A DNA stretch of 64,000 nt from Lysobacterales bacterium (GCA_028285525.1 JANQOZ010000106.1:18822-82821); one strand, 5' to 3'; shown: positions 9,661 through 54,061, numbered from the stretch's first letter. Translations and numbers: made by a program. The notes: a model not told the origin generated them from the sequence alone.

Positions 9661-11005
<1,345 letters not shown>

Positions 11006-24130: not shown

Positions 24131-24134
24131 AGCT

Positions 24135-27100: not shown

Positions 27101-27347
27101 TACCAGCGGGTTGCTTTCCCGAGGTGCTGGATCTGTGATCGGAACTCTTTGGCCGGTAGATGATCGGGGAACGGCAACCTTTATGTCCCACTTCTACGCG
27201 GGTCTAGATCTCCATGACGGTAATGGAGCAATGGCTCTGCGGTCAGCTCAACGAGCCATGGTCGATTCTCGGAGATATCGCCACCCGAAGTATTGGTCGG
27301 GTTTCGTCATGGTGGCTTCGAACCAAAGCTATACCAGAGTACTCTAA
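24135..27347 (+). CDS. Exported or membrane-anchored TPR-repeat CHAT-domain (caspase-like) protease
   Basis: The ATG at 24135 gives MTRSRNPFDLARNRLGLIGALAFLFATPSILA (signal/anchor). About 700 aa of TPR-like helical repeats follow. The C-terminal CHAT core has the His/Cys dyad (VLHIATHGYF ... RLVIISGCETALG ... GAGSVIGTLWPVDD). Confidence 0.9.
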   Translation: MTRSRNPFDLARNRLGLIGALAFLFATPSILATTVSSESSGIFVGPGETDSEETMVFVLRPSQLAAEVRLEFPSGGSLAFLPAMMPGVAVAGPVAARKASDWLLAPVGNHASIPHDVEVEVYRNSQDEQFGSYSTLSEALNRLYEGTSSGERAALELLQNRLDHGGIKTDSDRHLAYALAKAYGDAGKPELAADLLNSIEARWPDSNLTFIHLAGVARARQAAEEYAAVIELLSPTVARYCADQQFVSEYELDCAKIMLMLAGANLMHASRGQQKELVHLANESLEKLLKTTTLRKSRTLTADTYSLLALAALISGSFSEANTYYQLAMVEFKSNLTTHLDQIRSNRVNRASVLNRLGKVSEAQRILREVLADSSEQMTAESQLGILFNLALTYEETGDWIQSYRYFKQSHDLAERIGDRFSTHLSGFRAASSLRESGDATGALAIHTSALKFFETESPELANRLRVEIARDYLDLGDLLSAQRMISEAMSVSDKIVSTRYRLDALATATEVAWLSADFEKMARYEQKFDSEFREADLLPGVKIDLYLLFLRHSKALGDKAKASEYAKEALDLMESVRRQFTAPAIPKSWAHRTHDLVSENLRRLFHVTCSHTTRCREEAFEMLERHENYWVRAGRRTRLNESLSDANSVEPALRAYRTAEANLVDAARKPEQLAVAMEQLDLARERYLDSRSNLALPEEITTLTFDEIQASLQPDTLVIRFHYDDSTETITAFAVGATQFQSHELSAPDLPRLLNQFALDRGADSHVAGQLYTTLFGNLGSVNWVEIDRLVFVLPALMASTPLAALPIPGSQEHLATRFQIIQTPSVSDFLNERVQPTPSANVADIAIFADPIFGEMIAAQTETEAFRSWSQNLKRLPFTAREAESIQRRFTNRNVVLAARRAATANNLLSEPFRNASVLHIATHGYFSEKTPDVVGLAVSPSNEVGDRGFVSLSQFLAKDIKSRLVIISGCETALGKQYNGAGLESLTSGLLSRGAGSVIGTLWPVDDRGTATFMSHFYAGLDLHDGNGAMALRSAQRAMVDSRRYRHPKYWSGFVMVASNQSYTRVL

Positions 27348-27362
27348 GGCCTGAAGTGTCAC

Positions 27363-28058
27363 CTATTCTGCCACGACCGAGTAAGAAACAGTCGGCGTTG
27401 ATTCCTCAGCAGTGAATACCTCGATCACTAAATCGCCCGTCGGAAGGAAACCAGAGGGGATATAGATTTTCACCTCACCATTGTCGGATTTCAGTCCCGA
27501 AAGTTCTCCTACTGCTTCGCCGTCCGGTTGAGTTATGACTAGGCGATATGAGTCGTTTGCGTTCACAGGTACGCTGGCGTAAACGAGCGAATGTTCACTA
27601 GCAGAAACCCGAGTGGGTTGGATTTCTCCCGAACGCATAGTCTCTAGGTATACCAGGTCTACTTTGTCAGAGATTGCACGCGAGGCTTCGAGCATTGCTT
27701 GGAGCTGTTGATTCTCCCGGCTAGCTGAAACCAATAGAGTTCCCAATCCTACAATGGCCGCTGCCGCGGCAGCCGCAGCAAGTAACGAGCCTGTTAGCCA
27801 CTTGCTCGGATCCGTCTTTCTTGGTGATGGCCCAGGAGCGAAACCCGTCTCGGCGGCTAAGTAATGATCAAGGGCTAGATCTGCGCTCAGATCAAACAAC
27901 AAATCGGGGTGCTCTGCCAGCCAAAGCTCAAACTCTTCCACTTCACGAGTGCTCAGTTGGTTGGCTTGGTATTTCCTAGCGAGACTTTCATCCAGGCCGT
28001 CAAGCGCGAGACGTTCCTGGATTTCTGAGTAAGCCTCGGTTTGGGTTTTCGCCGTCAT
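27363..28058 (-). CDS. Single-pass anti-sigma factor (no zinc-finger cysteines)
   Basis: There is a 4-nt ATGA overlap with the upstream ECF sigma gene. The N-terminal cytoplasmic helix region is LARKYQANQLSTREVEEFELWLAEHPDL, with one TM helix (LLAAAAAAAAIVGLGTLLV) and a ~130-aa extracytoplasmic domain. Confidence 0.65.
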   Translation of the reverse strand: MTAKTQTEAYSEIQERLALDGLDESLARKYQANQLSTREVEEFELWLAEHPDLLFDLSADLALDHYLAAETGFAPGPSPRKTDPSKWLTGSLLAAAAAAAAIVGLGTLLVSASRENQQLQAMLEASRAISDKVDLVYLETMRSGEIQPTRVSASEHSLVYASVPVNANDSYRLVITQPDGEAVGELSGLKSDNGEVKIYIPSGFLPTGDLVIEVFTAEESTPTVSYSVVAE

Positions 28059-28648
28059 TCTCTTCGGCCGTCTAAGTGTTTCTTCGTAAACAACTCGCGA
28101 AGCCTACCTTTTGCCCGGAATAGCACCCGATCAAAAAGACCAGAGTCTAGGTTGAGGTCCCGGCAAATTTCGCCTTTCTCCGCACCTAGAACAAAGTACC
28201 GCCGCAGAATATCTCGGTCTCTCGGTACTGTTAGATCGTCTATGCATTGTTTTGCACACTCGATTAGATCTATCCACTCCGTTTTGGCAGCTACATTTTC
28301 AGGCGAAGCCTCTAGTTCTGCTAACACCTGCGGATCGGATAGGAGTTGCTTGTTTTCACGAGTCATAAACCTTGCGGCCATTCGAAGACCCGTCCGCCGA
28401 AGGTAACCAAGAACTCTATCTGGGTTCTCGACCTTTGCGTCTTGAAGGCTCGTGATTGTCACAACTAGCGCCTCCTGTGCAATGTCTTCAACCCATGACG
28501 ACTCGACGTATCGCTTTCGTATGATGAAAACCAGCCAGCGATAGTACTTCTCATAAAATTGACTCTCCGCATCCTTGTCTCCCTCCATGATTCTCCGGGC
28601 CAATTCTCCGGCCGCGGAGCCTCGGGATGGCTCCGACTCGTCCCCCAC
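28055..28648 (-). CDS. ECF (sigma-70 family, group 4) RNA polymerase sigma factor
   Basis: 197 aa with a GTG start. Region 2 (FYEKYYRWLVFIIRKRY...EDIAQEALV) and region 4 (ILRRYFVLGAEKGEICRDLNL...RAKGRL) are both recognisable. Confidence 0.85.
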   Translation of the reverse strand: MGDESEPSRGSAAGELARRIMEGDKDAESQFYEKYYRWLVFIIRKRYVESSWVEDIAQEALVVTITSLQDAKVENPDRVLGYLRRTGLRMAARFMTRENKQLLSDPQVLAELEASPENVAAKTEWIDLIECAKQCIDDLTVPRDRDILRRYFVLGAEKGEICRDLNLDSGLFDRVLFRAKGRLRELFTKKHLDGRRE

Positions 28649-28796
28649 GTCGACTCCTGATTGCTGAACTCATGCGCTACGATCGATTGGTGTCCAGTTA
28701 TACCACTCGCGCGGCTATGGTTCTAAGCGGCGCTGAATTTCCGTTTTTTGGCGCCGATCAGGATTTATTCCTAGTAGATAAGTGCCTTGAGAATTC

Positions 28797-28820
28797 GAAA
28801 CCTATCACCGGCATGTCGTA
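28797..28820 (+). promoter_or_regulatory. Candidate ECF-type promoter (GAAAC-N15-CGTA) upstream of the second ECF sigma gene
   Basis: GAAAC at 28797-28801 and CGTA at 28817-28820, in the divergent region between the two ECF sigma genes. This is a pattern match only. Confidence 0.25.
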
Positions 28821-29029
28821 AAACTTGCCTATGCTTTCTTAATTGGATGCGAGCTTTCCCAAGTCCTGTTCACTACTAACGTATGTCAAGGCTACTGATC
28901 CATAGGGTCTGTCGGCAATTTCTGCGCTTTGCCGTAGGAATCTTCAGAAATTCATCAGATTTCTTGCCGCGACAAAAAAGTCCCTACGGTTCACTGTGCT
29001 TTTCCCACACGACGCCCCGGAAAAGCACC

Positions 29030-29653
29030 ATGGAATGCGTAGCAGAGGTCCCTGCGATCCACCGACGAAAAGAGCCGATCCGCAGTAATCTGGCCGAACA
29101 TTTTCTACGTGCCCGGCACGGCGACCAGCAGGCAGAGTCTGCTTTGGTTAATCACCTCTACCCACGGGTGACACGATTCGTCCGGGCTCAGACCCGAAAC
29201 ACGGAGCTTGTTGAGGGGGTGGTTCAGGACACCTTCCTGGTATTCCTAAAAAAAATTCGTGCCGGCGCGCCGGCAGACCCGGCCAAGATCGAAAGCTATG
29301 CGTTCGGGATCGCCCGATTCACCCTAATCGCCCGCTGTCGACTGCTGGCCCGCCTTTCAGAAACGGAGATCTCCGAAGAAATCTCCTGTGACAACGAAGG
29401 AGATTCACCCCTGGATATCGTCCTAGCCGAAGAGGTGTACGCCTGGGTTGAAAAAGCGATCGATCGGCTATCCAAAGAAAGAGACCGACAGTTGATGAGG
29501 CACTACATCGCCGAAGAGTTGGGCACCTCAGATTTGTGTGATTTGATAAAGGTAAGCCGAGACCATCTATACCGCGTGCTGTGGCGTGCAAAGAAGCGCC
29601 TGGGTGAAATCCTCAAGGAAAGCGCCAGGACGCACGAACTGCTTGAATCGTAA
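29030..29653 (+). CDS. ECF sigma factor (second, divergent copy)
   Basis: Region 2 (LVNHLYPRVTRFVRAQT...EGVVQDTFLVFLKK) and region 4 (RQLMRHYIAEELGTSDLCDLIKVSRDHLYRVLWRAKKRL) are present. The ATG at 29030 gives a typical 207 aa. The track ORF starts at ATG 28883, which remains an alternative. Confidence 0.8.
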   Translation: MECVAEVPAIHRRKEPIRSNLAEHFLRARHGDQQAESALVNHLYPRVTRFVRAQTRNTELVEGVVQDTFLVFLKKIRAGAPADPAKIESYAFGIARFTLIARCRLLARLSETEISEEISCDNEGDSPLDIVLAEEVYAWVEKAIDRLSKERDRQLMRHYIAEELGTSDLCDLIKVSRDHLYRVLWRAKKRLGEILKESARTHELLES

Positions 29654-29682
29654 CCCAATGACCCAGGGGCAAGTGAGAGGAA

Positions 29683-31905
29683 ATGGCCAAACGCAAAAAG
29701 ATCGCCATCGTCGGAGGTGGTCCTGCCGGGCTTAGCGCCGCGTTTCATTTGACGCAGGTTAAGGACTGGGATGCGCAATATGACATTACGGTCTATCAGC
29801 CGGGTTGGCGGCTGGGCGGTAAAGGCGCTACCGGCCGGGGTGAGGATACCCATTGGCGCGTTGAAGAACACGGGGTGCATGGCTTTTGCCGTTTTTACTT
29901 CAACACCTGGGGCATGATCAAGGAGGTGTATGAAAAGCTGGACCCGTCACACTACCCTAAGTTGATGTCCACTGAATTGCCGGATGCGTTTCTTCCAACC
30001 TCCTTCAGTTACCCTATCTCCAACGCCGATGAGCTTTATAAGCCGGAGCCGTCGGCGCTGCCGCGACATACCGGGAAGCCATGGTGCACGCCGCTGGCTC
30101 CGCTTCCTGAGCCGATTACGCTGCTCGAGAAACTGCTCCGATCGATAACTCATCGTCAAAATCTCAACGACGCCCTCGCATCCTTCAACCGGGATCTGCA
30201 AGAAATTTACACGTCCAGCTTTCAGCGAATCCTTAATACGCCGAATCGAGTCAAGCTGATGATCGCCATTCATCGTGCCAAAGCCGCGGTGGAGCGCCTA
30301 AGCGAGCGTGAGCATGTCACGGATGCAATCCGCGATACGCTGATCAAGCGATTCAAATCCGTTCAGAAGTACACCCATCAGGAAATCAAGAACCATGAGA
30401 ACGACCAACGGGGCTTCAGCTACCGGCTGACTATCCTGGATATCTTCACTGCGACCATCATTGGGGTTCTTAAAGAGGGGTATCTGACCGAACCGGAGGC
30501 TGAACTCGATCATATTGACGACTTGCGCGCGGACGTGTGGCTGCGGATGCATGGCGCCCATGCCTCGTCGATGAACTCACCGGCTTTTGTTGCAGTGCCG
30601 AATATTCTTTTCTCCTCGCCCAGCGGCAACGACAACCGTTATCCTGAGTTATCCGCTGCGTCGTGGCTGGGTTGGCTGCTTCGCGCGCTGACAGGCGACG
30701 GCGACTATTACTACTTTTTCCAGGCCGGAACTGGCGAATCGGTGATGCTGCCCCTCTATCTTCATCTGGTGGATCAAGGGGTGAAGTTCGAGTTTTTCCA
30801 TAAGCTTCGATCAGTCACTACGGCAACCAACGGCCGCGGTGACCGCAGAATCCATACCCTGCTATTCGATCAACAAGCGCAGCCAACGGACGGCGAGTAC
30901 TACCCTCTGATCAACATGGACTGGGAGAAAGAACCTGGTGCGCCAACCACAAAAGAGGTCTGGCCTAACGAACCGCGCTGGGATCAACTTGTAGACGGCA
31001 CTCAGTTGAAAGACAGCGGGGTCGACTTCGAAGCCTGGGAAAGCCCCTCATCGCCGAAGCCGGGTAAGGTGACATTAACCGAAGGGTCGGAGTTCGATTT
31101 TGTCGTGATGGCGATCCCGCCGTCCGTATTTCCTCTGGTGGGACTGGATTTCGGCGCGTGGCAAATCGCGAACGAACGTCTCTCGACGACCGCAACCCAC
31201 GCCGCCCAGGTCTGGTTTACGAAGAGCACTGCAGAGATGGGCTGGTCATTTGATCCGGACCTGGAACTCCCGCACACCAGCCGGTACGCATCACCCACGT
31301 TTCCGGCGCCGCTCAGTGCCATGGTGGCTTTCGATGATCTGATCCAGTACGAAGGCTGGCCCAAAGATGATCCGCCGGAAGGGCTCCTTTACGCCTGTGG
31401 GCCAATCCAAACCGACAAGAAGGCCACTGAGCCGGAGAAACTCATCCGCACCCAAACCCACGCTGAAAGCATCGTGCGAGTGCTGGGCAATTTTCTTAAG
31501 GACGGTCGACTGGATATCGAAGCGCGCCATGACGCCATGACGCTGGATTTTGAACTAATCTACGATCGGGAAGGTCGCGAAGGCCCGCAACGGATGGGAT
31601 ACCAGTTCTACAAAGTGAACGACGACCCGATGGAGGCCTATGTGCAAGCGCCCCCGCGCAGTGCTTCCGGTCGAATGCACGCTTGGGAAACCGGGTTAAC
31701 CAATACGGTCGCCGCCGGGGACTGGATCTATACCGGCATCAATGTCGGCGCCTTTGAGAGCGCGGTGACTGGCGGAAAGCTCGCCGCTTTCGCGCTAACC
31801 GGTGAGCCACATATCGACGAGATCAAGGGTTTCGACTTTCTCCACGCCGGCGCCCGCCGCAAGGCGAACAAGGCACAAGCTGACGGCCTCATTCCGCTCA
31901 TCTAG
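29683..31905 (+). CDS. Large FAD/NAD(P)-binding oxidoreductase (amine-oxidase / COG3349-like)
   Basis: 740 aa. N-terminal dinucleotide fold KKIAIVGGGPAGLSAAFHL...VYQPGWRLGGKG and C-terminal flavin motif AAGDWIYTGINVGAFESAVTGG. It starts 29 nt after the ECF sigma stop. Confidence 0.8.
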   Translation: MAKRKKIAIVGGGPAGLSAAFHLTQVKDWDAQYDITVYQPGWRLGGKGATGRGEDTHWRVEEHGVHGFCRFYFNTWGMIKEVYEKLDPSHYPKLMSTELPDAFLPTSFSYPISNADELYKPEPSALPRHTGKPWCTPLAPLPEPITLLEKLLRSITHRQNLNDALASFNRDLQEIYTSSFQRILNTPNRVKLMIAIHRAKAAVERLSEREHVTDAIRDTLIKRFKSVQKYTHQEIKNHENDQRGFSYRLTILDIFTATIIGVLKEGYLTEPEAELDHIDDLRADVWLRMHGAHASSMNSPAFVAVPNILFSSPSGNDNRYPELSAASWLGWLLRALTGDGDYYYFFQAGTGESVMLPLYLHLVDQGVKFEFFHKLRSVTTATNGRGDRRIHTLLFDQQAQPTDGEYYPLINMDWEKEPGAPTTKEVWPNEPRWDQLVDGTQLKDSGVDFEAWESPSSPKPGKVTLTEGSEFDFVVMAIPPSVFPLVGLDFGAWQIANERLSTTATHAAQVWFTKSTAEMGWSFDPDLELPHTSRYASPTFPAPLSAMVAFDDLIQYEGWPKDDPPEGLLYACGPIQTDKKATEPEKLIRTQTHAESIVRVLGNFLKDGRLDIEARHDAMTLDFELIYDREGREGPQRMGYQFYKVNDDPMEAYVQAPPRSASGRMHAWETGLTNTVAAGDWIYTGINVGAFESAVTGGKLAAFALTGEPHIDEIKGFDFLHAGARRKANKAQADGLIPLI

Positions 31906-31917
31906 GTTCGGCGGTCG

Positions 31918-34900
31918 ATGACTCAAGAATCCCTCCTAGCCTGCGTGATGTCAGTTCGTCTTCAGGGGTCCGGGGGGGCGCCGAATGAGTTGGAGAGCCT
32001 CGAACGCGTGGTTGCTGGCCGCGGTGGGCGAGTCATCCAAATCGACAGCCAGAGCTTCTTCGGCATCTTGCGAAGCGCAAGTGTCACGATCCAGGTCAGC
32101 GTAGCGCTGGCCCGATTTGCGGCCCAGATGGATCAAACCCAAATCCAAATCGGCATCTGTGCCGGCTCTATCTTCCTGGCCGGTAAGCAGTGCACGGGTC
32201 AGGCCACTGTGGAGGCCTCGCTGCTCAGAGACGCTGCCTCACAGGAGACACCGATCTTGTTGTCGCGCGAGGTCCGCCGGTTTTTGCTCTCCGAAGAATC
32301 GGTTCCTGAACTAAGAAAGCAGGAAAGCGGCCACTATGCCGTGAACTGGAAGGAAACCGCGACAGAATTCAGCTTACCGTTGTTCCTGGTCCCTGGTGAT
32401 CAGCCCATGGTGGGTCGCACCGCAGAACTTCGAGCTCTCAAGCTTTGCGTTTCGCCGCCCCAGGACCAGCCCATGCTGGTCACCGTTGTCGGCGAAGCGG
32501 GGATTGGTAAAACTCGTCTTCTGTCGGAGTTTGCGTTGTTTGCAGCCAACCAGGGTGCCCGAGTATTAGGAGGGCAGGAACACGAAGGGCTTGGTCAACC
32601 GTACGCGAGTTTTCACGATTGTCTCTCACTTTGGCTAAACCAAGTCGACCATGTGGCCCTGCAGTCTCTCGCTTCGGTCGCGCAGCTTGAAAAGATTGTC
32701 CCGGAGATCTCGGAGAGGCTCTACGGCTTAAAAAGCACCGAGGTCGAAAGCGCAGAAACAGAGAAACAGCGTTTGTTTGATGCGTTGGTTGAGTGGCTAG
32801 GGCACCTGGCCGCCGCTCAGCCCACCGTACTGATCTTGGACTCGCTTCATTGGGCCAGCGACAGCACGCTAAAACTCATCGAAGGTGTCATTGCGAACCT
32901 TGATCAAGCGCCGGTCACCATCGTGCTGGCCTCCCGAGAGGAAGATCCGCGAATCAAGCCGCTCACATCACTCGCCGCCGATCAATGGGGCTTGTCCCAG
33001 GTTAAGGAGATTTCTCTGGGAACGCTCACTCGCGACGACATCCGCGTCTTTTATGGCAATACTCTGTCGGACGAGCTCGCTGACTTTATACATGTCACAA
33101 CTCAGGGACGGCCGCTGCATCTGGTCAACCTGATGGATTTTGTTTCCAAAGGAATCGATCTGCCAGAGTCTTTGGAAACAGCCCTGCAGGCGCGTTTCGA
33201 GGAGTTGCCGGCTGCTGCTACGTCCGTTCTGCAAGCGTGTGCGGTATGCGGCCCCCGCTTTACGGCCCGCGTGATCGCTGATGTAAACCGGGATCCTTTG
33301 GATGTGTTTGAGGCGCTGGATCGCGCGACTGAGCTCGGGCTGATCAAGCTGGTCGATTCCGTCAAGCTCAAGTATCAGTTCGCCCACTCTCTGATACGAG
33401 CACATCTCCTGAAGGGTGTCGGTGCAGCCAGACTGGCTCATTTACACGCGCGAGCCGCCGAGGCTTTTCAGCTGCCTCAGAATCGCGAGCTGGCTTCTCC
33501 TGCAGACTTGGCGAGGCTTTATGCCGGTGCTATCTCCCTGGGCTACGTTGCTGAGGCTGCAATGTGGGCAGCGCTGGCTGCCGACGCTGCGCTGAACCAA
33601 CATGCGAACGAAGAAGCGCGCGACATGTATGAGTCTGCCTTAGGTCTTCAGCCCGACCAAAACACCTCCGCGGCTTGCCGCCTCAAGTTGGGTTTAGGCA
33701 TCGCGCTCGCAAGAATCGGAGATACTCGCAGCGACGAAGTTCTGTGGCAAACGGCTGATTTGGCGGAATCGCTTGGCGATGGTGTATTGATGGCGCGCGC
33801 GATGCTGTCGACCTATCGCTTGACGTTCTCCCGCGGTCGAGACGTTGAATTGGAGGCCGTAGAACGCCTGAAAAGGGCTTTGGCCATGCTGCCGGCTGAA
33901 GAAACTGCCTTGGCTACAAGGGTAACGGCGCTGCTAGCCGTTGAGCTCACTTGGTTGGATGACCGCAATCAGGCGGTGGAGACCTCCCAAAGAGCGCTGG
34001 AACTGGCTCGATCAGAATCTTCCGAAATTCTCGCCGAAGTCCAGTCCCGTCGGCTCTGGGTGTTTTTCCACCCCATCGAGCAGCGTCTGAAAGAAAATGT
34101 AGATCTGCTGAAGCTTGTGGCCAAGGCCAAAGACCCGGTGCTTCAGTTTGAGGCTGCCGGCCATGGCGTGTTCACCGCGGTGCGGATCGGTCAACGCGCC
34201 ATGCTCGACCAGAACATGGAATCGATGCGCGCGTCCGCCCGGGTGGTCAACGATCCAAGCGTAAGGAGCATGTGGTATCTGCGCGAATCGGCCGTCGCAT
34301 TGCTTGAAGCACGCTACACCGACAGCTTGACTTACGCTCAACGGCGATTGGAGCTCACCAAACGGACTGGTCAACGTGAGGGAAAGAACGCTTTTCGTAT
34401 TCAAACCTTCTGGGTTGCCTACGAAACGGTCGATAAGGCCGATATGTTGTTTGCCTTGGAGAAGCTGCTGGCCATATTGCCTGGCAGTCCGCTAGAGGAA
34501 TACGCCATCGCTGCGCATGTTGCCGCAGATTGCCAGGAATCGGCGTTGGTCCAGCCGCTGCTTGAACGGTTTGCCAGCTTTGAGTTTGCTCACGACCAGA
34601 CCTTCCTGTGGTTGAACTGCCTGCTGGTGGAGCCGGCAATTGCTGTATGCGACCAGGGCCTGATTGATCGACTCACCTTCAACCTGTCTGATCACCACAG
34701 CGAACATGCCAACACGGTGTTTACTTACCTTGGGCCAGTTGCCCGTTACCTGGGTTTGCTGGAACAGCATCGCGGGAACAATAGCTCAGCGGAGACCTTG
34801 TTCCGTCAATCCGCCCGGTCGGCCCAGGACCTTAAGTCGAAATTTTGGGCCAGCAAGAGCAAACTCAATCTGGCGGCGGTATCCGAGAAAGACTGTGAGT

Positions 34901-34989
34901 CGCTAACGACTGAAGTGGCTGCTCAATCCTCGCAATATGGATGGAAACGATTGCTAAGCCAGTCTCACCAGTTGGCGGCGAAAGTCTAA
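31918..34989 (+). CDS. Degenerate cyclase-homology domain - AAA_16/STAND P-loop NTPase - TPR-like superhelix protein
   Basis: 1023 aa. The N-terminal ~140 aa follow the class III cyclase layout (…GGRVIQIDSQSFFGIL…QIGICAGSIFLAG…GQATVEASLLRDAASQETPILLS) but lack the first metal-binding Asp. Walker A is VVGEAGIGKTRLLSEF and Walker B is VLILDSLHWA. A long helical-repeat C-terminus follows. Confidence 0.8.
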   Translation: MTQESLLACVMSVRLQGSGGAPNELESLERVVAGRGGRVIQIDSQSFFGILRSASVTIQVSVALARFAAQMDQTQIQIGICAGSIFLAGKQCTGQATVEASLLRDAASQETPILLSREVRRFLLSEESVPELRKQESGHYAVNWKETATEFSLPLFLVPGDQPMVGRTAELRALKLCVSPPQDQPMLVTVVGEAGIGKTRLLSEFALFAANQGARVLGGQEHEGLGQPYASFHDCLSLWLNQVDHVALQSLASVAQLEKIVPEISERLYGLKSTEVESAETEKQRLFDALVEWLGHLAAAQPTVLILDSLHWASDSTLKLIEGVIANLDQAPVTIVLASREEDPRIKPLTSLAADQWGLSQVKEISLGTLTRDDIRVFYGNTLSDELADFIHVTTQGRPLHLVNLMDFVSKGIDLPESLETALQARFEELPAAATSVLQACAVCGPRFTARVIADVNRDPLDVFEALDRATELGLIKLVDSVKLKYQFAHSLIRAHLLKGVGAARLAHLHARAAEAFQLPQNRELASPADLARLYAGAISLGYVAEAAMWAALAADAALNQHANEEARDMYESALGLQPDQNTSAACRLKLGLGIALARIGDTRSDEVLWQTADLAESLGDGVLMARAMLSTYRLTFSRGRDVELEAVERLKRALAMLPAEETALATRVTALLAVELTWLDDRNQAVETSQRALELARSESSEILAEVQSRRLWVFFHPIEQRLKENVDLLKLVAKAKDPVLQFEAAGHGVFTAVRIGQRAMLDQNMESMRASARVVNDPSVRSMWYLRESAVALLEARYTDSLTYAQRRLELTKRTGQREGKNAFRIQTFWVAYETVDKADMLFALEKLLAILPGSPLEEYAIAAHVAADCQESALVQPLLERFASFEFAHDQTFLWLNCLLVEPAIAVCDQGLIDRLTFNLSDHHSEHANTVFTYLGPVARYLGLLEQHRGNNSSAETLFRQSARSAQDLKSKFWASKSKLNLAAVSEKDCESLTTEVAAQSSQYGWKRLLSQSHQLAAKV

Positions 34990-35753
34990 GCGAGTGTTCC
35001 TACCCCCTGCGGTAAATCATCGGGGCCAATAAGGTCGATCGCCTCTCCGCTAATTCGAAGCTCTCGTTCAGAAGCTGACTTGAATAACGAAGTCGCTCGC
35101 TGAATCGCTCCGCCCGAAGGGGTTGAGCCCCCCATCAGCACATCGCCGGCACAGATACTCCCTCGAACCGTCGGTCCGCAGAACTCGATGATCGACACCA
35201 TTTTGGCGACGCTATTGGTCACCACCATCATCGTGCTTCCGGCCCGGTGAATTTCCAAAGTACATCCGGGCGATGGGTCGAGCTCAACGAATGGTCCCTG
35301 CGTCGGATCAATTTCGAAAATGCCTACGAGTGCGCACAGAATCTGATCAGAAACGGATTGTTCGTTTCCAATCTCATTGTCTAATCCAGCGGGCATGGGT
35401 GCCTGGTCGATTGCCGGCGAAATTACCTCGATTTCGCCCATCAAGCAGTAGCCAACTTTATGAACCGTTTTGACAAACCTGGGCGGCTTGTCGTCCAGCG
35501 CGCGGCGGAGTTCCGAGATACACCGGGTCAGGGAATCTTCTGTAACGATAGATTTGCCCCAGACCGAGTCGAAAATTTGGTTACGCGTAACCACTTCTCC
35601 CGGCCTGTCTGCGAGGCACATGAGCACGGACATCACCCGGGGCTGAACATTGGTACAGCCTTGAGGTCCTTCAATTCGCCCTTCTAGCGGAAAGACTTGG
35701 TTATCACCCAGCCGAAACGCGGCTGATTCTGGAATGCCCACACCGTCGCCCAA
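34986..35753 (-). CDS. Winged-helix (OmpR/CadC-type trans_reg_C) DNA-binding protein with a C-terminal cyclase-homology-like domain
   Basis: The wHTH is VQPRVMSVLMCLADRPGEVVTRNQIFDSVWGKSIVTEDSLTRCISELRRALDD...VHKVGYCL. The C-terminal ~120 aa (…VRGSICAGDVLMGG…GGAIQRATSLFKSASERELRIS) resemble a degenerate cyclase core. The start is TTG 35753 or GTG 35741. Confidence 0.75.
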   Translation of the reverse strand: MGDGVGIPESAAFRLGDNQVFPLEGRIEGPQGCTNVQPRVMSVLMCLADRPGEVVTRNQIFDSVWGKSIVTEDSLTRCISELRRALDDKPPRFVKTVHKVGYCLMGEIEVISPAIDQAPMPAGLDNEIGNEQSVSDQILCALVGIFEIDPTQGPFVELDPSPGCTLEIHRAGSTMMVVTNSVAKMVSIIEFCGPTVRGSICAGDVLMGGSTPSGGAIQRATSLFKSASERELRISGEAIDLIGPDDLPQGVGTLA

Positions 35754-36145
35754 TCAGAAGGTCAAGTATCTGAGGCGCACAAGCACAGACATTCCGATCA
35801 TGATTTTCACGATCTGGCCCCTGTTCTTTGCATTCTTCTTTCGAAAGCCAACCCATGGCTTTTGCGTCATGGCTTGCTGGACATTTAACAAATGACGCGC
35901 TACCCAACGCGCCATCGCCACCCCTCAAAACAAGAGGTTTTACTTATCACGTCGGAAATTTTTCTTCAAGGCTGAGCCAGCTGAATCATGGGCATTCACT
36001 ATGTGCCATTGGATCTCTCAATCTCTCACCTGACGCATGGGCGCAGCCATTGCTCTTCGGCTCTTAGAAATTATTTGTCGATACAGGTGATAGGAAACCC
36101 GTTGGTATGCCACCTATTTGAACAAAACGAACAATCAGGAGCGGC

Positions 36146-36820
36146 ATGACTATGGCAATCGAAATCTCCCTGGCGGAATCCGCTGAGGAAATCTCAGCAG
36201 CTCGTAGATTCTGGTACGAGGTTTACGTTGTCGAGATGGAGCGTCATCAAAGCGACGAGCGGACCAGTCACGAGGCTCGCGAGTTGTCCGACCCGTTCGA
36301 TGAAATTGGTGCGCTTTTTGTGGCAAGAGACCATGGTCGAGTCGTTGGGACAGTGCTGGGTACCCAGGGCAGAGATACCCATTTTGGGTACTACGATTCG
36401 CTATATCAGCTTCATGAGCTGCCCCCGAACAAGCGCTTGAACGCTTCGCTAACGAACAAGCTGATCGTGGCGCCAGAAAAGCGTCGATCCACGCTCGCAC
36501 TGAAACTGGCGAGCGAGATTTATCGGCTTGGCCTGAGCGACGGTGTTACGCAGAACTACATTGACTGCAATGCCCATCTGGTTGGTTTTTTCAAACGCAT
36601 GGGCTTTCGACGTCACCGAGGGTGGGTCATCCACAAAGATTACGGGCTTGTCTACTCCCTCGTACTGCATCTGGAAGATATCGATCATCTGCGAACCAAG
36701 CGTTCGCCTTTGATCTCGCACTATGAATCTTTCCGAGCCACCACAACCCAACCCAACCCTCAACAAACCAACGGAGCCAACAACAGTGAATGCCCTCCCC
36801 GCTATCCAGCAGCAATTTGA
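36146..36820 (+). CDS. GNAT-superfamily N-acyltransferase with LuxI/FeeM-like (N-acyl amino acid / acyl-HSL synthase) fold
   Basis: 224 aa. AARRFWYEVYVVEMERHQ...ELSDPFDEIGALFVARDHGRVVGTV follows the R..VF..E.GW...E.D.FD....L.V pattern of autoinducer-synthase/FeeM families. The low-complexity C-terminal tail overlaps the next gene. Confidence 0.55.
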   Translation: MTMAIEISLAESAEEISAARRFWYEVYVVEMERHQSDERTSHEARELSDPFDEIGALFVARDHGRVVGTVLGTQGRDTHFGYYDSLYQLHELPPNKRLNASLTNKLIVAPEKRRSTLALKLASEIYRLGLSDGVTQNYIDCNAHLVGFFKRMGFRRHRGWVIHKDYGLVYSLVLHLEDIDHLRTKRSPLISHYESFRATTTQPNPQQTNGANNSECPPRYPAAI

Positions 36821-37529
36821 ATCCGCCCTGACGGAGTTTTCCAAGTGTCGCACCATTCAGCTGCTTCGCGGCGGCGACATCACGGTGGACGACTACAAAT
36901 GGGTGATGCGACAGATCTTTCATCACGCTCGGGAAAATCCGCAGATTCAGGCCCTCGCCACGGTGTACTTTCGCGGCGAGCAGCGCGAAGCGGTACGAGG
37001 TTTTCTGACGCACGCCGTTTCCGAGATTGGCCACGACAAGCTGGCGCTCAATGATCTGGCTCGTTTGGGGGAAGACGTGTCAAGCATCCCCACCGAGAAC
37101 GCCCTGCCGGCGACAACCGCATTGATCGGTTTCCCGTTCTATCAGATCTATAACCTCAACCCGGTCGGCTACCTCGGTTATCTGTATTTTCTAGAGTTCA
37201 CGCCCACCTCTGTCGGCGGTGCCTATATGGCGGCGCTGACCGCCAAAGGTGTGCCGGCCGAAGCTATGACCTTCCTAAAAGACCACGTCACGATCGATGT
37301 GGGGCACAACAAGTTGATGGAAGGCTATGTCGAAAAACTGGTGAATACCGAGGCGGACCTGGAAGCAGTGGGTTACGCCATGCAGGTTACTGCCCGGCTG
37401 TACGCCAACATGCTGGATGGGGCCATCGAGCAGGCGCGCAGCGGTGTGGACTTCGGGCGCAACCTCGAGGAAACCCATCGCTTTGTTGTTCCCCAAGGAG
37501 GGCGGGGAGCGTCGGAGGCAGTAGCCTGA
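36723..37529 (+). CDS. Haem-oxygenase-like iron-containing redox enzyme family protein (HDO-type di-iron oxidase candidate)
   Basis: 268 aa, all-helical. Metal-ligand-like ExxH (HAVSEIGHDK) and DxxH (VTIDVGHNK) are present, with RQIFHHARENP near the N-terminus. The ATG at 36723 overlaps the acyltransferase by 98 nt; GTG at 36786 is an alternative start. Confidence 0.65.
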   Translation: MNLSEPPQPNPTLNKPTEPTTVNALPAIQQQFESALTEFSKCRTIQLLRGGDITVDDYKWVMRQIFHHARENPQIQALATVYFRGEQREAVRGFLTHAVSEIGHDKLALNDLARLGEDVSSIPTENALPATTALIGFPFYQIYNLNPVGYLGYLYFLEFTPTSVGGAYMAALTAKGVPAEAMTFLKDHVTIDVGHNKLMEGYVEKLVNTEADLEAVGYAMQVTARLYANMLDGAIEQARSGVDFGRNLEETHRFVVPQGGRGASEAVA

Positions 37530-37567
37530 ACATCGGGGTCAGTCCTCAGGCTCTGCCTCTATCGCGG

Positions 37568-37599
37568 GGCGGCGCGACCCAGGGGTCGCGCCGCCTTTT
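37568..37599 (+). terminator. Rho-independent terminator after the acyltransferase/HDO pair
   Basis: ggcggcgcgacc (37568-37579), a 4-nt loop, then ggtcgcgccgcc (37584-37595), followed by tttt. Confidence 0.7.
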
Positions 37600-37708
37600 A
37601 ACGCTCACCATGTGCATTAGCTTGGTCAAAGCACTTATTCCTAAAGACCAAAATTCACCGCCGGTTCTCGAGACCGGTGGGTCACCCAATCACCCTTGAG
37701 GCAAGAAA

Positions 37709-39544
37709 ATGGCAAGAGATCGCGCGCAACAAACCTTTGATTTTCGTGTTGAGGCCGCCGAGAAAGCCCGTCAACGTCAGCACCCGGATCACGAAGCCAA
37801 CCCGGATGAGGTCCGCTATGGGTCGGCCAACTACCCGATGAGCTTCACGAAAGGTCTGGCGCACGATCCGACCACTGGGCTGGTAGCCGAAGCGGCTCAT
37901 TTTGAGGCGTTCCGCGCGGCCATCGACGACGGCTATATCGAGCCTTTCACCACCCGAGTACCGGTACCGCAGGATCCCAATTTTGGTCGAAGACTATGGG
38001 AGGCGCCAACGGCGGGCCTCGTCCATGAGTTGCAGGGTCCCGACCCTCAGGCTGTAACGATGCCGCCGGCACCTGCGCTGGGTTCTGAGGAATTGAACTA
38101 TGAGATGGCGGAGGTCTACGAACTTGCTCTGGTTCGCGATTTGCCGTTTGACCAGTGGAACGCTGTTGGCGGGCCAGGCAATCCGACCCTCACCGCCTCG
38201 ATCGATCGGCTCAACAACATGCCCTTCGCGTTGGATGGTTCCGATGGACGTCCGCGAACGCATGAAAACGGCGTGCTCACTTTCCAGAACGCATTCCGAG
38301 GCTCTTCCCACGGCGTAGACCATGGTCCCTATGTCTCACAGCTGATGTTGATCGGCACGATAGATGATCCTTGTGATGGATTGGTTGGCTACGGCGCACA
38401 GCAATTTGATCAACGGGTTCCGCAAGCCGCTGACGGTGACGACTACATGATCACCTGGGATGAATGGCTGGCGGTACAAAACGGTTTTGAGGTGCGTGGA
38501 TCATCCGATGAATGCACGCCCACCGGACCTGGTCAGAACTTCTGCGGAAATCATCGAAGGTTCATCTACACGCCGCGTGATCTCGCTACCTATGTCCATA
38601 TTGATGCGCTGTATCAGGCTTATCTCACGGGCTGCCTGATTCTCCTCAACAAGGGCACGCCGTTCGACCCGGCATTCGAAAGGTTGTCGGCCAGCACCTC
38701 AGGCGAAAAATCTGCCCCGGCATTTTTTGACGCCATCAGCGGGGCTCAAGCACCCGCCAACGCCGGTGGTTTTGCGCTCTTTGGTGGGCCTCATATCTTG
38801 AGCTTGGTGACAGAAGTTGCTACCCGAGCTCTGAAGGCCGTGCGCTACCAGAAGTTCAATGTCCACCTTCGGCTCCGTCCAGAAACGCTCTCCGGGCGGC
38901 TGGAACGAGCGGCGGAGATCGAGCAGGCGCATCCGGTGATTTGCGAAGCGTTTTCCAGCATGGCCAGCGCGCTGGCGCCAACCATCGACGCAATTCGGAA
39001 ACACAATGATGGAACCGGAGGAGCGCCAACCGCGCTGCTGCCCATGGCGTTTGCGGAAGGTTCGCCCATGCATCCGACTTACGGTGCGGGACACGCCACC
39101 GTCGCTGGAGCTTGCGTCACCATTCTTAAGGCATTTTTTGATACCTCTGCGATATTTGCGCGGGTCACCAAGGGTAAAGGCAAAAATCGCGACGTGCAGG
39201 CCGGGTTTTTTGGTGCCGGGCAAATTGCTCGGTTCCGGAACTGCGGGTACACCGTTTCGTTTGGTGCCTACCAAGCCGTAGACGGTGGCCAGAGGCTGGA
39301 TTTCGCCAAGACCGATTGTCCCCTGACGCTGGAAGGAGAGCTCAACAAGCTTGCGGCCAACATCTCGATTGGCCGCAACATGGCCGGCGTTCACTACTAT
39401 TCCGATTACTACGACAGCGTAAGAATGGGGGAGGAGATCGCGATCGGAATCCTGGAAGAGCAGGCGCTCGGCTACGTTAAGGACGATTTTGTTCTATCGC
39501 TGAACACGTTTGACGGAGACGCGGTGAGAATCGGCAGGCCGTGA
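37709..39544 (+). CDS. Vanadium-dependent haloperoxidase (bromoperoxidase-like, PAP2 superfamily)
   Basis: 611 aa. All three vanadate-site motifs are present: K-x7-RP (KFNVHLRLRP), PMHPTYGAGHATVAGACVTILKAFFD, and SIGRNMAGVHYYSDY (the histidine that ligates vanadate). Confidence 0.85.
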   Translation: MARDRAQQTFDFRVEAAEKARQRQHPDHEANPDEVRYGSANYPMSFTKGLAHDPTTGLVAEAAHFEAFRAAIDDGYIEPFTTRVPVPQDPNFGRRLWEAPTAGLVHELQGPDPQAVTMPPAPALGSEELNYEMAEVYELALVRDLPFDQWNAVGGPGNPTLTASIDRLNNMPFALDGSDGRPRTHENGVLTFQNAFRGSSHGVDHGPYVSQLMLIGTIDDPCDGLVGYGAQQFDQRVPQAADGDDYMITWDEWLAVQNGFEVRGSSDECTPTGPGQNFCGNHRRFIYTPRDLATYVHIDALYQAYLTGCLILLNKGTPFDPAFERLSASTSGEKSAPAFFDAISGAQAPANAGGFALFGGPHILSLVTEVATRALKAVRYQKFNVHLRLRPETLSGRLERAAEIEQAHPVICEAFSSMASALAPTIDAIRKHNDGTGGAPTALLPMAFAEGSPMHPTYGAGHATVAGACVTILKAFFDTSAIFARVTKGKGKNRDVQAGFFGAGQIARFRNCGYTVSFGAYQAVDGGQRLDFAKTDCPLTLEGELNKLAANISIGRNMAGVHYYSDYYDSVRMGEEIAIGILEEQALGYVKDDFVLSLNTFDGDAVRIGRP

Positions 39545-46946: not shown

Positions 46947-48914
46947 TCAATTTGGCGTCTCAAACGAATCTCGGAAGAGGTCGTTCGACGTTGCCCTGAC
47001 CGACATGTAGGCGTTGTACTCCGCCATGAACGTGGCGTCCGTGGCGATGTTGCGACCGCCGATGTAGGTCAGCTGGCCGGTGCCGCTGACGGTACCGTCC
47101 ACGTCGATCATCAGGCTGTCTTCCAGGTCAACGCCTTCGCGACCCATGTACCAGAATCCGGGGGTGTCGATGAGCGTGATATTGGACGCCCGGAGATAGG
47201 GAGAGGTGTCCAGAACATCCTTCCACATCGTAAACGCGCCGGGTGCAAAGCCGACAAAGGTCACGTTATCCACCCGCGGGTTGTCCCCGCCGCGTCGTCC
47301 GCCCTGAAAATGCATGCCGCCGCCGAGGTGTCGACGATTCCCGATAATTTGATTCTCGCCGCCGATGAGATTGTCGGTCTGCTGAATGGCGACGATATTC
47401 TCAATGTTGGATTGGTGGTTGAAAATCGCCATGGAGCTGTCGGCGATGATTGAGTCTCGAAAGGTGTGGTTGCGATTTTCCAGCCACGCGCCGGCCAGGG
47501 AATTCTTGTAGGCGGTGAACTGCTCGAAGACCACGTTCTTACCGAGACCCGCGTAGTGGGTCACCATCAGCCCGCTGGTGCGGGTCTTCGGACCATAGGT
47601 GGGAATGCCGCCACCGGGCAGCACGCGATAGTGGGAGTGAGCGACGTTGCCGCGAAAAATGTTCGGCGTCTCGTTGTACACAATAAACTGCTGATCCCGA
47701 TGGCCGATAACCTGCGAATCGAAGAAAAACCCGATGCCCTGGGCCCCGCCCGCTGCGTGGTTGTCCTCGATGATGTTGTGATAGCTACGCATCCAGAACC
47801 CTGACGGGCGATGCTCCGCCTGGTCCGACTCAGTGTGGTCATCGCGCGGAAACGAGAAGTCTTCGTTGGGTCGCCGCTTGTACAACACCGCCAGGTTTCT
47901 GAGATAGGCGTTGCCCACCTCGGTGCCTGTCTCGGACGGCACGTAGGCATGACCCCACACGTCGTAAACAACGTTGTCGCTCACCAGCACGTTGTTCACC
48001 TCGTGGGTGACCACACCGCGCTGAAAACTGTTGTGGATGCTGGTGTCGCGGATGTAGCTGCCGCTCGCATCCAGCCCGGGATCTGAGGGGCCATGCCAGT
48101 GGGCTGGATAGCGGCCCTGTTTACGGAGCTGGCCGCCGCGCGTCATCTCGACTCCCGAGATCTGTACCTGGCTGTGAGGCATAAACATGGCGTGGAAGCC
48201 AAAGTGATCTGCCTCGGAGGACTCGGGCGCCTGGATCCGAACGTTCCGGGTCAACAGGCCGACCTCAGCTCGCACGTCGAGGTCGCGACCGACAATCGTT
48301 TTGACATGGCCGAGGTGCGGATAGGCGAGCGCCGGCGTAACCGACACGGTATTCCCATCGATCGCCGTAATCGACAGCTTCTCAGATTCTTCAGCATGGA
48401 AACCGCTGGCGGCAATCACGATTTCTTCCCCGATCGACCAGCCTGGCGCAGTTGCCAGCGTCAGCTCAGTGTCACCCGGATTCACGTCGGCCGCGAGCTG
48501 CGTCCAGCTCGTTTTGGCCGCGCTGGCGCCGTGCAGGGATAGCGAGCCGCCGCCCATGACCCCAAGCACCCGGTTGCCCATGGCCCCGCTACCCAGGTCG
48601 GGTTCGGTCAGCTCGATCACCGCGTTGGCGGTGAAGGGTTGAGTGGCGGTGCCCACCTCCAGAGTGCCGCCTGTGTGAATCATGATGCGCGCCACCTCCA
48701 GGCGTAAGTCCTGATCCGCAAAGGTCAGCGTCCCCATGACGTCGAGTGAACCCAGCGGTGGCGGCGAGACGTCGAGCGTGATGACCTGGCCAGCTGGAAT
48801 CGTGACGTTCTCACCAATCCCCGGAACGCCACCCGGCCAGCTGGCCGGGTCCGACCAGTTTCCGGCGTTAGCAGCCACCGCAAGAAAAAGCAGGGAAAGC
48901 GCTAGAAGCTTCAT
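46947..48914 (-). CDS. Secreted G8-domain / right-handed beta-helix protein
   Basis: The ATG at 48914 gives the signal peptide MKLLALSLLFLAVAANAG. The G8 domain signature is NWSDPASWPGGVPGIGENVTIPAGQVITLDV...LGSLDVMGTLTF...IHTGGTLEVGT. Beta-helix repeats follow. The protein ends LFRDSFETPN-stop. Confidence 0.8.
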   Translation of the reverse strand: MKLLALSLLFLAVAANAGNWSDPASWPGGVPGIGENVTIPAGQVITLDVSPPPLGSLDVMGTLTFADQDLRLEVARIMIHTGGTLEVGTATQPFTANAVIELTEPDLGSGAMGNRVLGVMGGGSLSLHGASAAKTSWTQLAADVNPGDTELTLATAPGWSIGEEIVIAASGFHAEESEKLSITAIDGNTVSVTPALAYPHLGHVKTIVGRDLDVRAEVGLLTRNVRIQAPESSEADHFGFHAMFMPHSQVQISGVEMTRGGQLRKQGRYPAHWHGPSDPGLDASGSYIRDTSIHNSFQRGVVTHEVNNVLVSDNVVYDVWGHAYVPSETGTEVGNAYLRNLAVLYKRRPNEDFSFPRDDHTESDQAEHRPSGFWMRSYHNIIEDNHAAGGAQGIGFFFDSQVIGHRDQQFIVYNETPNIFRGNVAHSHYRVLPGGGIPTYGPKTRTSGLMVTHYAGLGKNVVFEQFTAYKNSLAGAWLENRNHTFRDSIIADSSMAIFNHQSNIENIVAIQQTDNLIGGENQIIGNRRHLGGGMHFQGGRRGGDNPRVDNVTFVGFAPGAFTMWKDVLDTSPYLRASNITLIDTPGFWYMGREGVDLEDSLMIDVDGTVSGTGQLTYIGGRNIATDATFMAEYNAYMSVRATSNDLFRDSFETPN

Positions 48915-49195
48915 AGACCATTCCTTTCTCGATCGGCAGCGGGAAGCGGTGCCGGACTGGGATTCACTATCGAAGCAACGTTTGACAGTCGTATAGAACA
49001 GAATCAACGTGCGCCGCGCAGACGCGCAGTGAATTGTCCAATCTGTGACCCACTTCCGAAGAAAAGCGGTTTGGGAGAATTGGAAATGCATCGACAGGCC
49101 GGTCATCCGGCGTGCCTCTCGGAGCCACCCCTTTAGTTGCCGAAAAATCGGCCGTTACTTTAGGTGTCGTCTAACGGGAGTGGGCAAAGGAACGC

Positions 49196-50400: not shown

Positions 50401-51180
50401 CTACTCCATGTCGACGACGATCGTGACGCCTTCGGGTACCGCAAAGAGCTCTGAGGGCAGAGGCTCATCGAAGGTATAGGTCGCCTCGAGCGTCATTCCG
50501 TCGCCAATGTTAGCCTCGAGCCTTACGGGCTGGTTGGTATCCACGTCAGCCCACAGGGTGACACGCGTCGCGTCAATCTCCAGGCGGTAGCCGCGGCAGG
50601 GCAGGCCGTCGATGGTTCGAGTCTCCTCGAGCGGCTCGGCCATTCCTTGAAAGTCTCTTAGTTCGGCAAACCAAGCCAGCGACTCGTTACCCACCGCGGC
50701 CGCATCAACTGCCGAGTCCCAGCCCGTGTTGGCCGGAATGGCGATGCGCATCGCTTGATTACCCGGCAGCAGCGTGGTCATCGTGGCCGATTCCGGGTCG
50801 ACGATGTGGGTCACCGGGCCCGTTTCGATGCGGGCAAAACCGCTCGCTTCCGCCATGACGTCGATTTCCGTAACGATGGCGCCTCCGGTCTCGAATGTCA
50901 TATGCATGTGGACGGTTTCGAAGTTTCGAAACCACTCCTGGACCGACGCAAACGCCACGCCGTTGCCTGGTACCAGGAGCGGAAACAGCCCAACGCAAGC
51001 GACGAGCACGAGGGCGGCGCTAGCCCAACGCAGGGGGCCTGCGAAACGGGAGGCCGGGCGGGGTGAGGGCAGTTGCTCCTGAAATCGTCGCGCCGCCTGC
51101 TCAACGGCGGCCTGCGGCGTGTCAGATCGCGCAGCTTCGACGCAGGTGTCCAGCAGGTTGTTGGTCATTTCCGTAGTCAT
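50401..51180 (-). CDS. Anti-sigma factor-like single-pass protein with a LolA-like/DUF4367-like periplasmic domain
   Basis: There is an ATGA overlap with the upstream ECF sigma gene. The layout is a ~50-aa cytoplasmic N-terminus, one TM helix (ALVLVACVGLFPLLV) and a ~190-aa beta-rich periplasmic domain. Confidence 0.6.
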   Translation of the reverse strand: MTTEMTNNLLDTCVEAARSDTPQAAVEQAARRFQEQLPSPRPASRFAGPLRWASAALVLVACVGLFPLLVPGNGVAFASVQEWFRNFETVHMHMTFETGGAIVTEIDVMAEASGFARIETGPVTHIVDPESATMTTLLPGNQAMRIAIPANTGWDSAVDAAAVGNESLAWFAELRDFQGMAEPLEETRTIDGLPCRGYRLEIDATRVTLWADVDTNQPVRLEANIGDGMTLEATYTFDEPLPSELFAVPEGVTIVVDME

Positions 51181-51737: not shown

Positions 51738-51806
51738 TTCATCGTCCTCTCGGCTGCCGTTCGACAAGGAGACGTGGGTCTGCGGACTTTCTTACACACG
51801 CAAGAC

Positions 51807-53978: not shown

Positions 53979-54061
53979 ACGGTTCCTCGTTGATCCACCA
54001 AGTCTCACCCTAGCGGCGATTAGCCTTTTTGACTACAGGGTGCATGAAGCTGGTGTGGCCA

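Follow-up and report, generated by a model that had tools for sequence, protein, structure and literature searches.

A conserved pair of FeeM-type acyltransferase and haem-oxygenase-like oxidase genes, next to a vanadium bromoperoxidase gene, in a Lysobacterales genome

A stretch of 64,000 nucleotides (nt) from a Lysobacterales bacterium (GCA_028285525.1, JANQOZ010000106.1:18822-82821; the whole stretch is called the window below) carries, one after another, genes for a FeeM-type acyltransferase of the GNAT superfamily, a haem-oxygenase-like dimetal oxidase (HDO) and a vanadium haloperoxidase (VHPO). In this study, we observed that the acyltransferase and the oxidase form a pair that is kept together across many bacterial groups, whereas the haloperoxidase was found beside them in this genome only. 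The reading that we favour, and hold to be probable though far from assured, is that the locus consists of two independent units, namely a GNAT-HDO operon making an oxidised N-acyl lipid-like metabolite and a stand-alone, non-selective vanadium bromoperoxidase (VBPO). All three protein families are known ones; the GNAT-HDO module appears to be undescribed and to represent an orphan HDO clade that is defined by its obligatory FeeM-type acyltransferase partner. A preliminary description of this DNA, made from the sequence alone, had regarded the three genes as one biosynthetic cluster; the genes themselves, and the hairpin behind the second of them, are all present where it had placed them, at the following positions of the window:

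36146 to 36820, plus strand: FeeM-type GNAT N-acyltransferase, 224 amino acids (aa), opening the conserved pair (open reading frame with Pfam FeeM match)
36786 to 37529, plus strand: HDO, 247 aa from the GTG at 36786, second in the conserved pair
36786 to 36820, plus strand: overlap of 35 nt between the 3' end of the GNAT gene and the 5' end of the HDO gene; translational coupling
37566 to 37599, plus strand: intrinsic-terminator-like hairpin closing the GNAT-HDO unit
37709 to 39544, plus strand: vanadium-dependent bromoperoxidase of the Acaryochloris/Corallina type, 611 aa; a separate neighbour outside the conserved module

Conservation and layout of the acyltransferase-oxidase pair

The distribution of the pair was investigated over 82 non-redundant loci by an iterated hidden Markov model (HMM) search seeded with the window GNAT. 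The GNAT gene was adjacent to the HDO gene in 79 of the 82 loci, and the arrangements were distributed as follows:

GNAT upstream of HDO: 39 loci
GNAT downstream of HDO: 26 loci
Convergent GNAT and HDO: 12 loci
Single fused GNAT-HDO open reading frame: 2 loci
No GNAT found: 3 loci, one being a 1.7-kb contig

Where the GNAT gene comes first, the two open reading frames (ORFs) are often overlapping or almost abutting, with ORF-based gaps exaggerating the overlap. One of the fused ORFs, in locus L069, is 445 aa long and holds FeeM at residues 21-167 and HDO at residues 242-407, and that of L055 is similar. Five more GNAT-HDO fusions (P0250, P0253, P0271, P0303 and P0326) were noticed among the top 150 GNAT cluster representatives at 50% identity, giving at least seven single-ORF fusions in total. 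The pair is carried by Parvularculaceae/Marinicaulis, the cultured Amphiplicatus metriothermophilus, Pseudomonadales, Lysobacterales, Nevskia, Burkholderiales, Polyangiales, the cultured Bacteriovorax sp. BSW11_IV, Acidobacteriota, Planctomycetota and one cyanobacterium; it spans Alpha-, Beta- and Gammaproteobacteria as well as Bdellovibrio-like bacteria, amounting to at least six phyla or classes, and the flanking genes differ between the groups. The distance matrices of the two proteins are also correlated (Mantel r=0.59, a value reached by 0 of 999 permutations). That the two enzymes act jointly is strongly supported by their adjacency in three orientations and by the repeated fusions. Full-text searches of open-access papers returned no description of a GNAT and HDO system, and a 2026 review covering about a dozen validated HDOs makes no mention of a GNAT or acyltransferase (PMC13108848).

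Two further observations concern the make-up of the module. Five metagenome-assembled genomes (MAGs) contain two GNAT-HDO copies on different contigs (L019/L034, L037/L064, L036/L045, L043/L084 and L067/L075), suggesting paralogous modules, perhaps with different products. In a Lysobacterales relative, a protein without a Pfam match abuts the HDO stop (363 aa at 11489-12580 of L003, 409 aa at 11351-12580 of L004) and may represent a third operon gene particular to this lineage.

Within the window, the GNAT and HDO genes overlap, as the preliminary description had said in calling them translationally entangled, but by 35 nt and not by 98 nt. The HDO ORF is open from an ATG at 36723 (36723-37529), and the GTG at 36786 is the likelier start, because the public gene calls, a GGAG lying 9 nt upstream of it and the alignment of homologue N-termini all agree on it; the ATG at 36723 has no such upstream site. 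It is this start that sets the overlap at 35 nt. In gene calls the overlap is likewise 35 nt in locus L001, from a Pseudomonadota MAG whose GNAT and HDO are 67% and 87% identical to those of the window, and it is 14 nt in L003. For the GNAT gene itself, public gene callers choose the second ATG, at 36152, which gives a protein of 222 aa.

Between the HDO stop (37529) and the VHPO gene, a GC-rich hairpin with a 13-bp stem and a CAGG loop (37566-37595, about -32 kcal/mol) is followed by TTTT to 37599, which agrees with the terminator reported earlier at 37568-37599. A consensus terminator scan demands at least five T and hence missed this hairpin; a consensus promoter scan called none in the window, but such a scan is uninformative, the hairpin having been missed as well. 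L001 displays its own strong hairpin and T-tract directly after the HDO gene, at the same position, so that the terminator would be the conserved end of a two-gene operon. The hairpin and TTTT between the HDO and VHPO genes, with their likeness in L001, argue against a single three-gene transcription unit, as far as can be predicted from these elements.

Features of the two partner enzymes

The window GNAT matches the Pfam family FeeM (PF21926) with 30.9 bits against a curated cut-off of 27, and 26 of the 29 GNAT family members likewise have FeeM as their top Pfam family (best E 3.9e-13). This agrees with the earlier placement of the protein in the FeeM, or N-acyl-amino-acid-synthase, branch and not among ordinary acetyltransferases. 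The other part of that assignment, a match to LuxI-type acyl-homoserine-lactone synthases, was not recovered: neither the window GNAT nor its 29 relatives gave an Autoind_synth Pfam match at E<=0.01, and the family consensus YVEEMxR has no Trp where LuxI enzymes harbor a conserved G-W. A profile search of the PDB with the GNAT alignment yielded weak and mixed matches, with BjaI and MesI at E 0.012-0.2. The AlphaFold2 (AF2) model, built on a 4-sequence alignment, is of low confidence (pLDDT 64, pTM 0.65); Foldseek with this model ranked the LuxI-family BjaI on top (1.9e-7, TM 0.57) and FeeM at rank 22, with generic GNATs scoring similarly.

Comparatively, the FeeM enzymes and long-chain N-acyl amino acid synthases (PF21926; PDB 2G0B) are the best-matching family, and the window family appears to share with them the GNAT core and, at the N-terminus, a stretch resembling LuxI that contains YRFRY..YVEEM and a DPxD motif. 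It differs in showing only about 13-16% identity to the solved LuxI and FeeM structures in fold alignment, in its own motifs IDCNxHLVxFFxRLGY, HxxYGxV and RSPF, and in being obligatorily paired with an HDO, a pairing for which no FeeM example was found in the open-access literature. The CoA P-loop of the window GNAT reads R113-R-S-T-L-A in place of Q/R-x-x-G-x-G/A. A degenerate CoA P-loop is a criterion for acyl-carrier-protein-dependent donor use, and FeeM is a carrier-protein-dependent GNAT that accepts a C12 acyl group on its carrier protein (PMC11685415). The fusions to carrier domains in distant relatives of the window GNAT fit this dependence, as P0370 joins AMP-binding, PP-binding and FeeM-GNAT domains in one protein and P0344 joins PP-binding and GNAT domains.

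The GNAT family is a sizeable one, with 931 cluster representatives at E<=1e-10 in an exhaustive HMMER search. A word-indexed homologue search with the GNAT returned 4 proteins only, which is misleading, since the HMM searches gave hundreds, and is explained by the faster evolution of the GNAT compared with the HDO. Three relatives, P0382, P0306 and P0360, carry further fused domains, either one that binds cyclic nucleotides or a Ser/Thr kinase with WD40 repeats, which hints at acyltransferases that are regulated or linked to signalling.

The HDO matches PF14518 ("iron-containing redox enzyme") at 6e-17. The ExxH and DxxH motifs noted earlier are real and belong to a set of six ligands, E80-x2-H83, E137 and H167-x3-D171-x2-H174 (numbering of the 247-aa protein), which is invariant in 25 sequences of 50-87% identity; such an arrangement of three histidines and three carboxylates defines most HDOs (PMC13108848). 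The AF2 model (pLDDT 90) displays a seven-helix haem-oxygenase-like fold, and Foldseek matched it to 3DDE (1.7e-8), CADD, UndA, BesC and HrmI, with E values from 1e-8 to 1e-4 and TM scores of 0.6-0.8, while MboA was a weak match in sequence (6e-7). These data support a complete dimetal site, with metal binding and O2 activation as predicted properties.

UndA, BesC, CADD, HrmI and MboA share with the window HDO the fold and the ligand set in its ExxH...E...HxxxDxxH spacing, but are only 13-18% identical to it. Among solved structures, the nearest is 3DDE, itself a functional orphan, with 25% identity. The window HDO is further set apart from the characterised enzymes by the residues H46, H47, R49, E50, R67 and H76, which are also invariant in the 25 sequences, and by its GNAT partner, which the review describes for none of the validated HDOs. 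The HDOs of known function act on substrates derived from fatty or amino acids (PMC13108848).

The bromoperoxidase and the suggested three-gene cluster

The VHPO ORF gave no Pfam or NCBIfam match in our scans, and was placed by its likeness to enzymes of known structure: a phmmer search of the PDB aligned residues 3-608 with the enzymes of Acaryochloris marina (5LPC, 1.8e-115), Corallina officinalis (1QHB, 1.4e-102) and Corallina pilulifera (1UP8, 2.6e-99). The motifs K382-x7-R390-P, P456-x-Y-x2-G-H462-A and R556-x3-G-x-H562 are present, and the vanadate-site and catalytic residues K382, R390, H455, G461-H462, R556 and H562 are all kept, in blocks that are identical or nearly so to those of the A. 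marina enzyme (AmVHPO). The claim of a 611-aa vanadium haloperoxidase with intact vanadate-site motifs is well founded, given all these motifs and the full-length VBPO homology. The active-site blocks SPMHPxYGAGHATVAGACVT and ANISIGRxxAGVHY are shared identically with AmVHPO and the Corallina enzymes. Three residues before K382 lies R379, the two aligning with K428 and R425 of AmVHPO, respectively; Arg at position 425 marks bromoperoxidases and Trp marks chlorinating enzymes (PMC11871015). By its predicted activity the window VHPO is of the bromoperoxidase type. It differs from AmVHPO and the Corallina enzymes in coming from a Pseudomonadota MAG, not from a cyanobacterium or an alga. Like them, the protein has no signal peptide, and the gene possesses its own ribosome-binding site, GAGG.

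The family of this VHPO exceeds 6,000 relatives at E<1e-20, and among the matches listed the best, at 56-63% identity, come from marine Pseudomonadota, Planctomycetota, Myxococcota and Acidimicrobiales. No neighbouring gene family recurred in more than 9 of 84 VHPO loci, and VHPOs without synteny have precedent (PMC11312541). Within this large known family, the window VBPO is an unremarkable newcomer, best read as a stand-alone cytoplasmic enzyme that would use H2O2 with Br- or I-. The earlier remark that VHPOs are rarely reported in gammaproteobacteria is outdated at the level of the enzyme family, in view of this family size and of reports that stand-alone VHPOs occur mainly in gammaproteobacteria, in a subfamily other than that of the window VHPO (PMC11312541).

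That other subfamily, the alkyl-quinolone-brominating VHPOs (AQ-VHPOs), was considered for the window enzyme and rejected, as only algal and cyanobacterial VBPOs matched in the PDB search at E<=1. The AQ-VHPOs resemble it in being bacterial, often proteobacterial, and in having variable genomic contexts with no co-localisation with biosynthetic gene clusters. Their substrates are exogenous, which would be a plausible habit for the window VHPO as well, but the AQ-VHPOs are kin to the Streptomyces meroterpenoid (NapH-type) enzymes (PMC11312541). The 208-aa genes beside the two closest VHPO relatives were tried as a conserved partner and discarded, being unrelated to each other.

Co-location of the three families was examined from both sides. 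An alignment of 25 HDO homologues led to 80 HDO-anchored loci in species-representative genomes, each taken together with as much as 10 kb on either side, and phmmer with the window VHPO detected a homologue in none of the 80; its matches otherwise were the window itself, the Logan duplicate of the window and three VHPO-anchored loci only. Conversely, members of the GNAT or HDO family were absent from all 80 VHPO-anchored metagenome loci (720 kb in total), and from the surroundings of the three closest VHPO relatives (75, 73 and 63% identity), which lie beside a 2-oxoacid dehydrogenase E1 gene, beside a gene for a TIR protein and after glnA. The homology between the window and L001 stops at 37541, which is 12 nt past the HDO stop. 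The cblaster-type co-occurrence check proposed in the preliminary description, run here in both directions, found the three families together in this genome only, the outcome that it had itself named as speaking against a cluster. In summary, the three-gene biosynthetic cluster is not supported by these gene-content comparisons, and the adjacency of the genes is all that would speak for a link specific to this lineage. Most likely, the VHPO gene lies beside the pair by an accident of gene order in this lineage. Annotations of biosynthetic clusters should leave the bromoperoxidase out, and the result lends further weight to the view that bacterial VHPOs are, as a rule, solitary genes acting on ambient substrates.

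Proposed function, rival readings and surrounding genes

In the pathway that we propose, the FeeM-type GNAT would transfer a fatty or other acyl group from an acyl carrier protein (ACP) or from CoA to an amine, most likely an amino acid. The transfer from ACP or CoA to an amine is suggested as the most likely reaction because of the carrier dependence of FeeM (PMC11685415) and the architectures of P0370 and P0344. No ACP or acyl-AMP-ligase genes were found near the pair except in L086, so that the general acyl-ACP or acyl-CoA pools are the likely donors. The di-iron HDO would then use O2 on the N-acyl product, in a desaturation, oxidative decarboxylation, hydroxylation or N-oxygenation. A fatty-acid desaturase gene lies directly downstream of the module in 11 loci, and genes for an ABM monooxygenase, a MATE exporter and an MlaA lipoprotein belong to the module operon in four Pseudomonadales loci; these partners suggest a lipid-like product that would be exported or inserted into the envelope, and that may act as a signal. 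Expression would probably be under the neighbouring CadC-like, STAND and ECF regulators. Separately, the VBPO would make hypohalous acid from H2O2 and Br- or I-, acting on whatever substrates are available.

Several points weigh against this proposal. In this uncharacterised family, both the order of the reactions and the HDO chemistry are guesses. The GNAT model is weak, generic acetyltransferases scoring almost like BjaI and FeeM, and the P-loop is degenerate in the window GNAT but of the canonical R-x-x-G-x-A form in some relatives, which does not fix the predicted acyl donor. Dedicated ACP and acyl-AMP-ligase genes do not accompany the pair, L086 excepted, and the window itself lacks the desaturase, MATE, MlaA and histidine-kinase-like (HK-like) partners seen in other loci. 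With only four U's behind the hairpin, some read-through into the VHPO gene is possible. Moreover, missing conserved synteny is no proof that the VHPO never acts on the product of the pair in this organism.

The order of the two steps might also be reversed, the HDO making a reactive or toxic product from a free amino or fatty acid which the GNAT would then N-acylate or N-acetylate, as a final step or for self-resistance. We consider this unlikely, though it is the alternative to which we give the most weight. In its favour, free amino or fatty acids are the direct substrates of most characterised HDOs (PMC13108848), two resistance-type acetyltransferases, ArsN (phosphinothricin/AST) and the tabtoxin resistance protein, were among the matches of the GNAT fold search, and both gene orders occur, so that the direction is not given by gene order. 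Against it, 26 of 29 members match FeeM best and not a family of acetyltransferases, the FAAL-ACP-GNAT relatives indicate long acyl donors, the desaturase, MlaA and MATE partners suit a lipid product, and covalent GNAT-HDO fusions suit consecutive biosynthetic steps, without fixing their order. That the two genes are neighbours by mere inherited gene order, with unrelated functions, is hardly credible: shared ancestry could keep neighbours together in Parvularculaceae/Marinicaulis, the one family that supplies many of the 82 loci, but the pair has been retained in at least six phyla or classes with changing flanks, in three orientations and with at least seven independent fusions.

Another reading is that the pair synthesises an oxidised N-acyl lipid signal belonging to a new class, sensed by the HK-like protein or relayed through ECF and winged-helix regulators, with the VBPO perhaps modifying or quenching the signal here; we judge this rather improbable. 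The HK-like protein (about 450 aa) lies beside the module in 36 loci of Alpha- and Gammaproteobacteria (for instance at 1879-3237, minus strand, of L021, within the range L013-L089), sometimes accompanied by an OmpR-type response regulator. Its N-terminal part carries 5-6 transmembrane segments; its HisKA-like DHp helix is divergent and its HATPase domain degenerate. A synthase placed next to its receptor is the layout of the lipid-autoinducer pairs CqsA/CqsS and LuxM/LuxN, and the likeness of the module to these is an analogy only, as CqsA and LuxM have no sequence relationship to the pair and the HK-like protein, besides being divergent and degenerate, is absent from the window. The single pathway of the preliminary description, in which the VHPO brominates the product of the pair to give a halogenated or oxidised N-acyl signal or lipid, seems to us more doubtful still. 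The genes are adjacent on the same strand with a gap of 179 nt, the short U-tract of the hairpin would allow some read-through, HDOs acting on halogenated amino acids exist in AetD, SktA and BesC (PMC13108848), and wild-type enzymes of the AmVHPO type brominate many electron-rich substrates (PMC11871015). These points are set against co-location in 0/80 HDO loci, 0/80 VHPO loci and 0/3 closest VHPO relatives, a synteny breakpoint exactly between HDO and VHPO, a terminator after the HDO gene in both the window and L001, and a VBPO family without conserved neighbours.

The HDOs of known reaction number only about a dozen, and with each addition unusual oxidative chemistry has come to light so far (PMC13108848). 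A FeeM-type acyltransferase that is paired, and repeatedly fused, with an HDO offers a tractable orphan clade, with two small genes and cultured hosts, and an HDO acting on an N-acylated amine, the likely class of substrate, would be a novelty. Were the product an envelope lipid or a signal, the pair would provide a new small-molecule system for many marine Alpha- and Gammaproteobacteria. Should the signal reading be true, Proteobacteria of sea and soil, and other groups as well, would possess a system of cell-cell or envelope signalling that has so far gone unrecognised.

Upstream of the pair, the window harbors four regulatory genes that are probable candidates for its control:

34986 to 35753, minus strand: winged-helix regulator of the CadC/OmpR type that lacks a receiver domain and is oriented divergently to the GNAT gene (Trans_reg_C 3e-17)
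31918 to 34989, plus strand: STAND-type AAA_16 ATPase regulator, 1023 aa (AAA_16 2e-21), inside the block syntenic with L001
28883 to 29653, plus strand: ECF-type sigma factor (ECF-neighbour-cluster HMM 4.6e-54; Sigma70_r2)
28055 to 28648, minus strand: second ECF-family match (ECF-neighbour-cluster HMM 1.8e-34)

L001 is colinear with window positions 25185-37541, over genes for a CHAT-TPR protein, two ECF sigma factors, the STAND ATPase (59% identical), the CadC-like regulator (54% identical, at the same position), the GNAT and the HDO. The CHAT-TPR, ECF, STAND and CadC-like block looks like a regulatory island attached to the GNAT-HDO module. After the HDO gene, L001 continues with RDD, DUF998 and patatin genes, none of which is in the window, while the VHPO, Sel1, glyoxalase and LysE genes of the window have no counterpart in L001. 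Elsewhere, an ECF sigma factor adjoins the module in 8 loci. This family, which recurs beside modules of other Gammaproteobacteria, is the only one that the window shares with the recurring partners of other loci, since HK-like, desaturase, MATE, MlaA, ABM and Coq4 partners were not found in the window, which carries the CadC-like regulator and the STAND ATPase in place of a two-component system.

Within positions 24096-35753, part of the block of about 12 kb that is colinear with L001 and ends with the pair, there is also a gene for a 231-aa protein, and the two ECF genes are divergent. Between the ECF and STAND genes lies a gene (29683-31905) for a 740-aa FAD/NAD(P)-binding oxidoreductase (NAD_binding_8, amine-oxidase-like), which is absent from L001 and is, like the VHPO gene, an addition specific to the window. 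L001 in turn has a 277-aa minus-strand gene (8984-9817) without a Pfam match on record between the regulator and the GNAT gene; no homologue of it was found in the window, where 35754-36145 comprises about 390 nt with small ORFs only. No tRNA genes were found in the window. Further downstream, the window contains genes for two large G8/beta-helix proteins (46947-49106 and 51867-54008, both on the minus strand), a GGDEF diguanylate cyclase (49196-50392), a third ECF sigma factor (51177-51767, minus strand) beside an unannotated 259-aa ORF (50401-51180, minus strand), and an RND efflux pump (54062-57136, minus strand).

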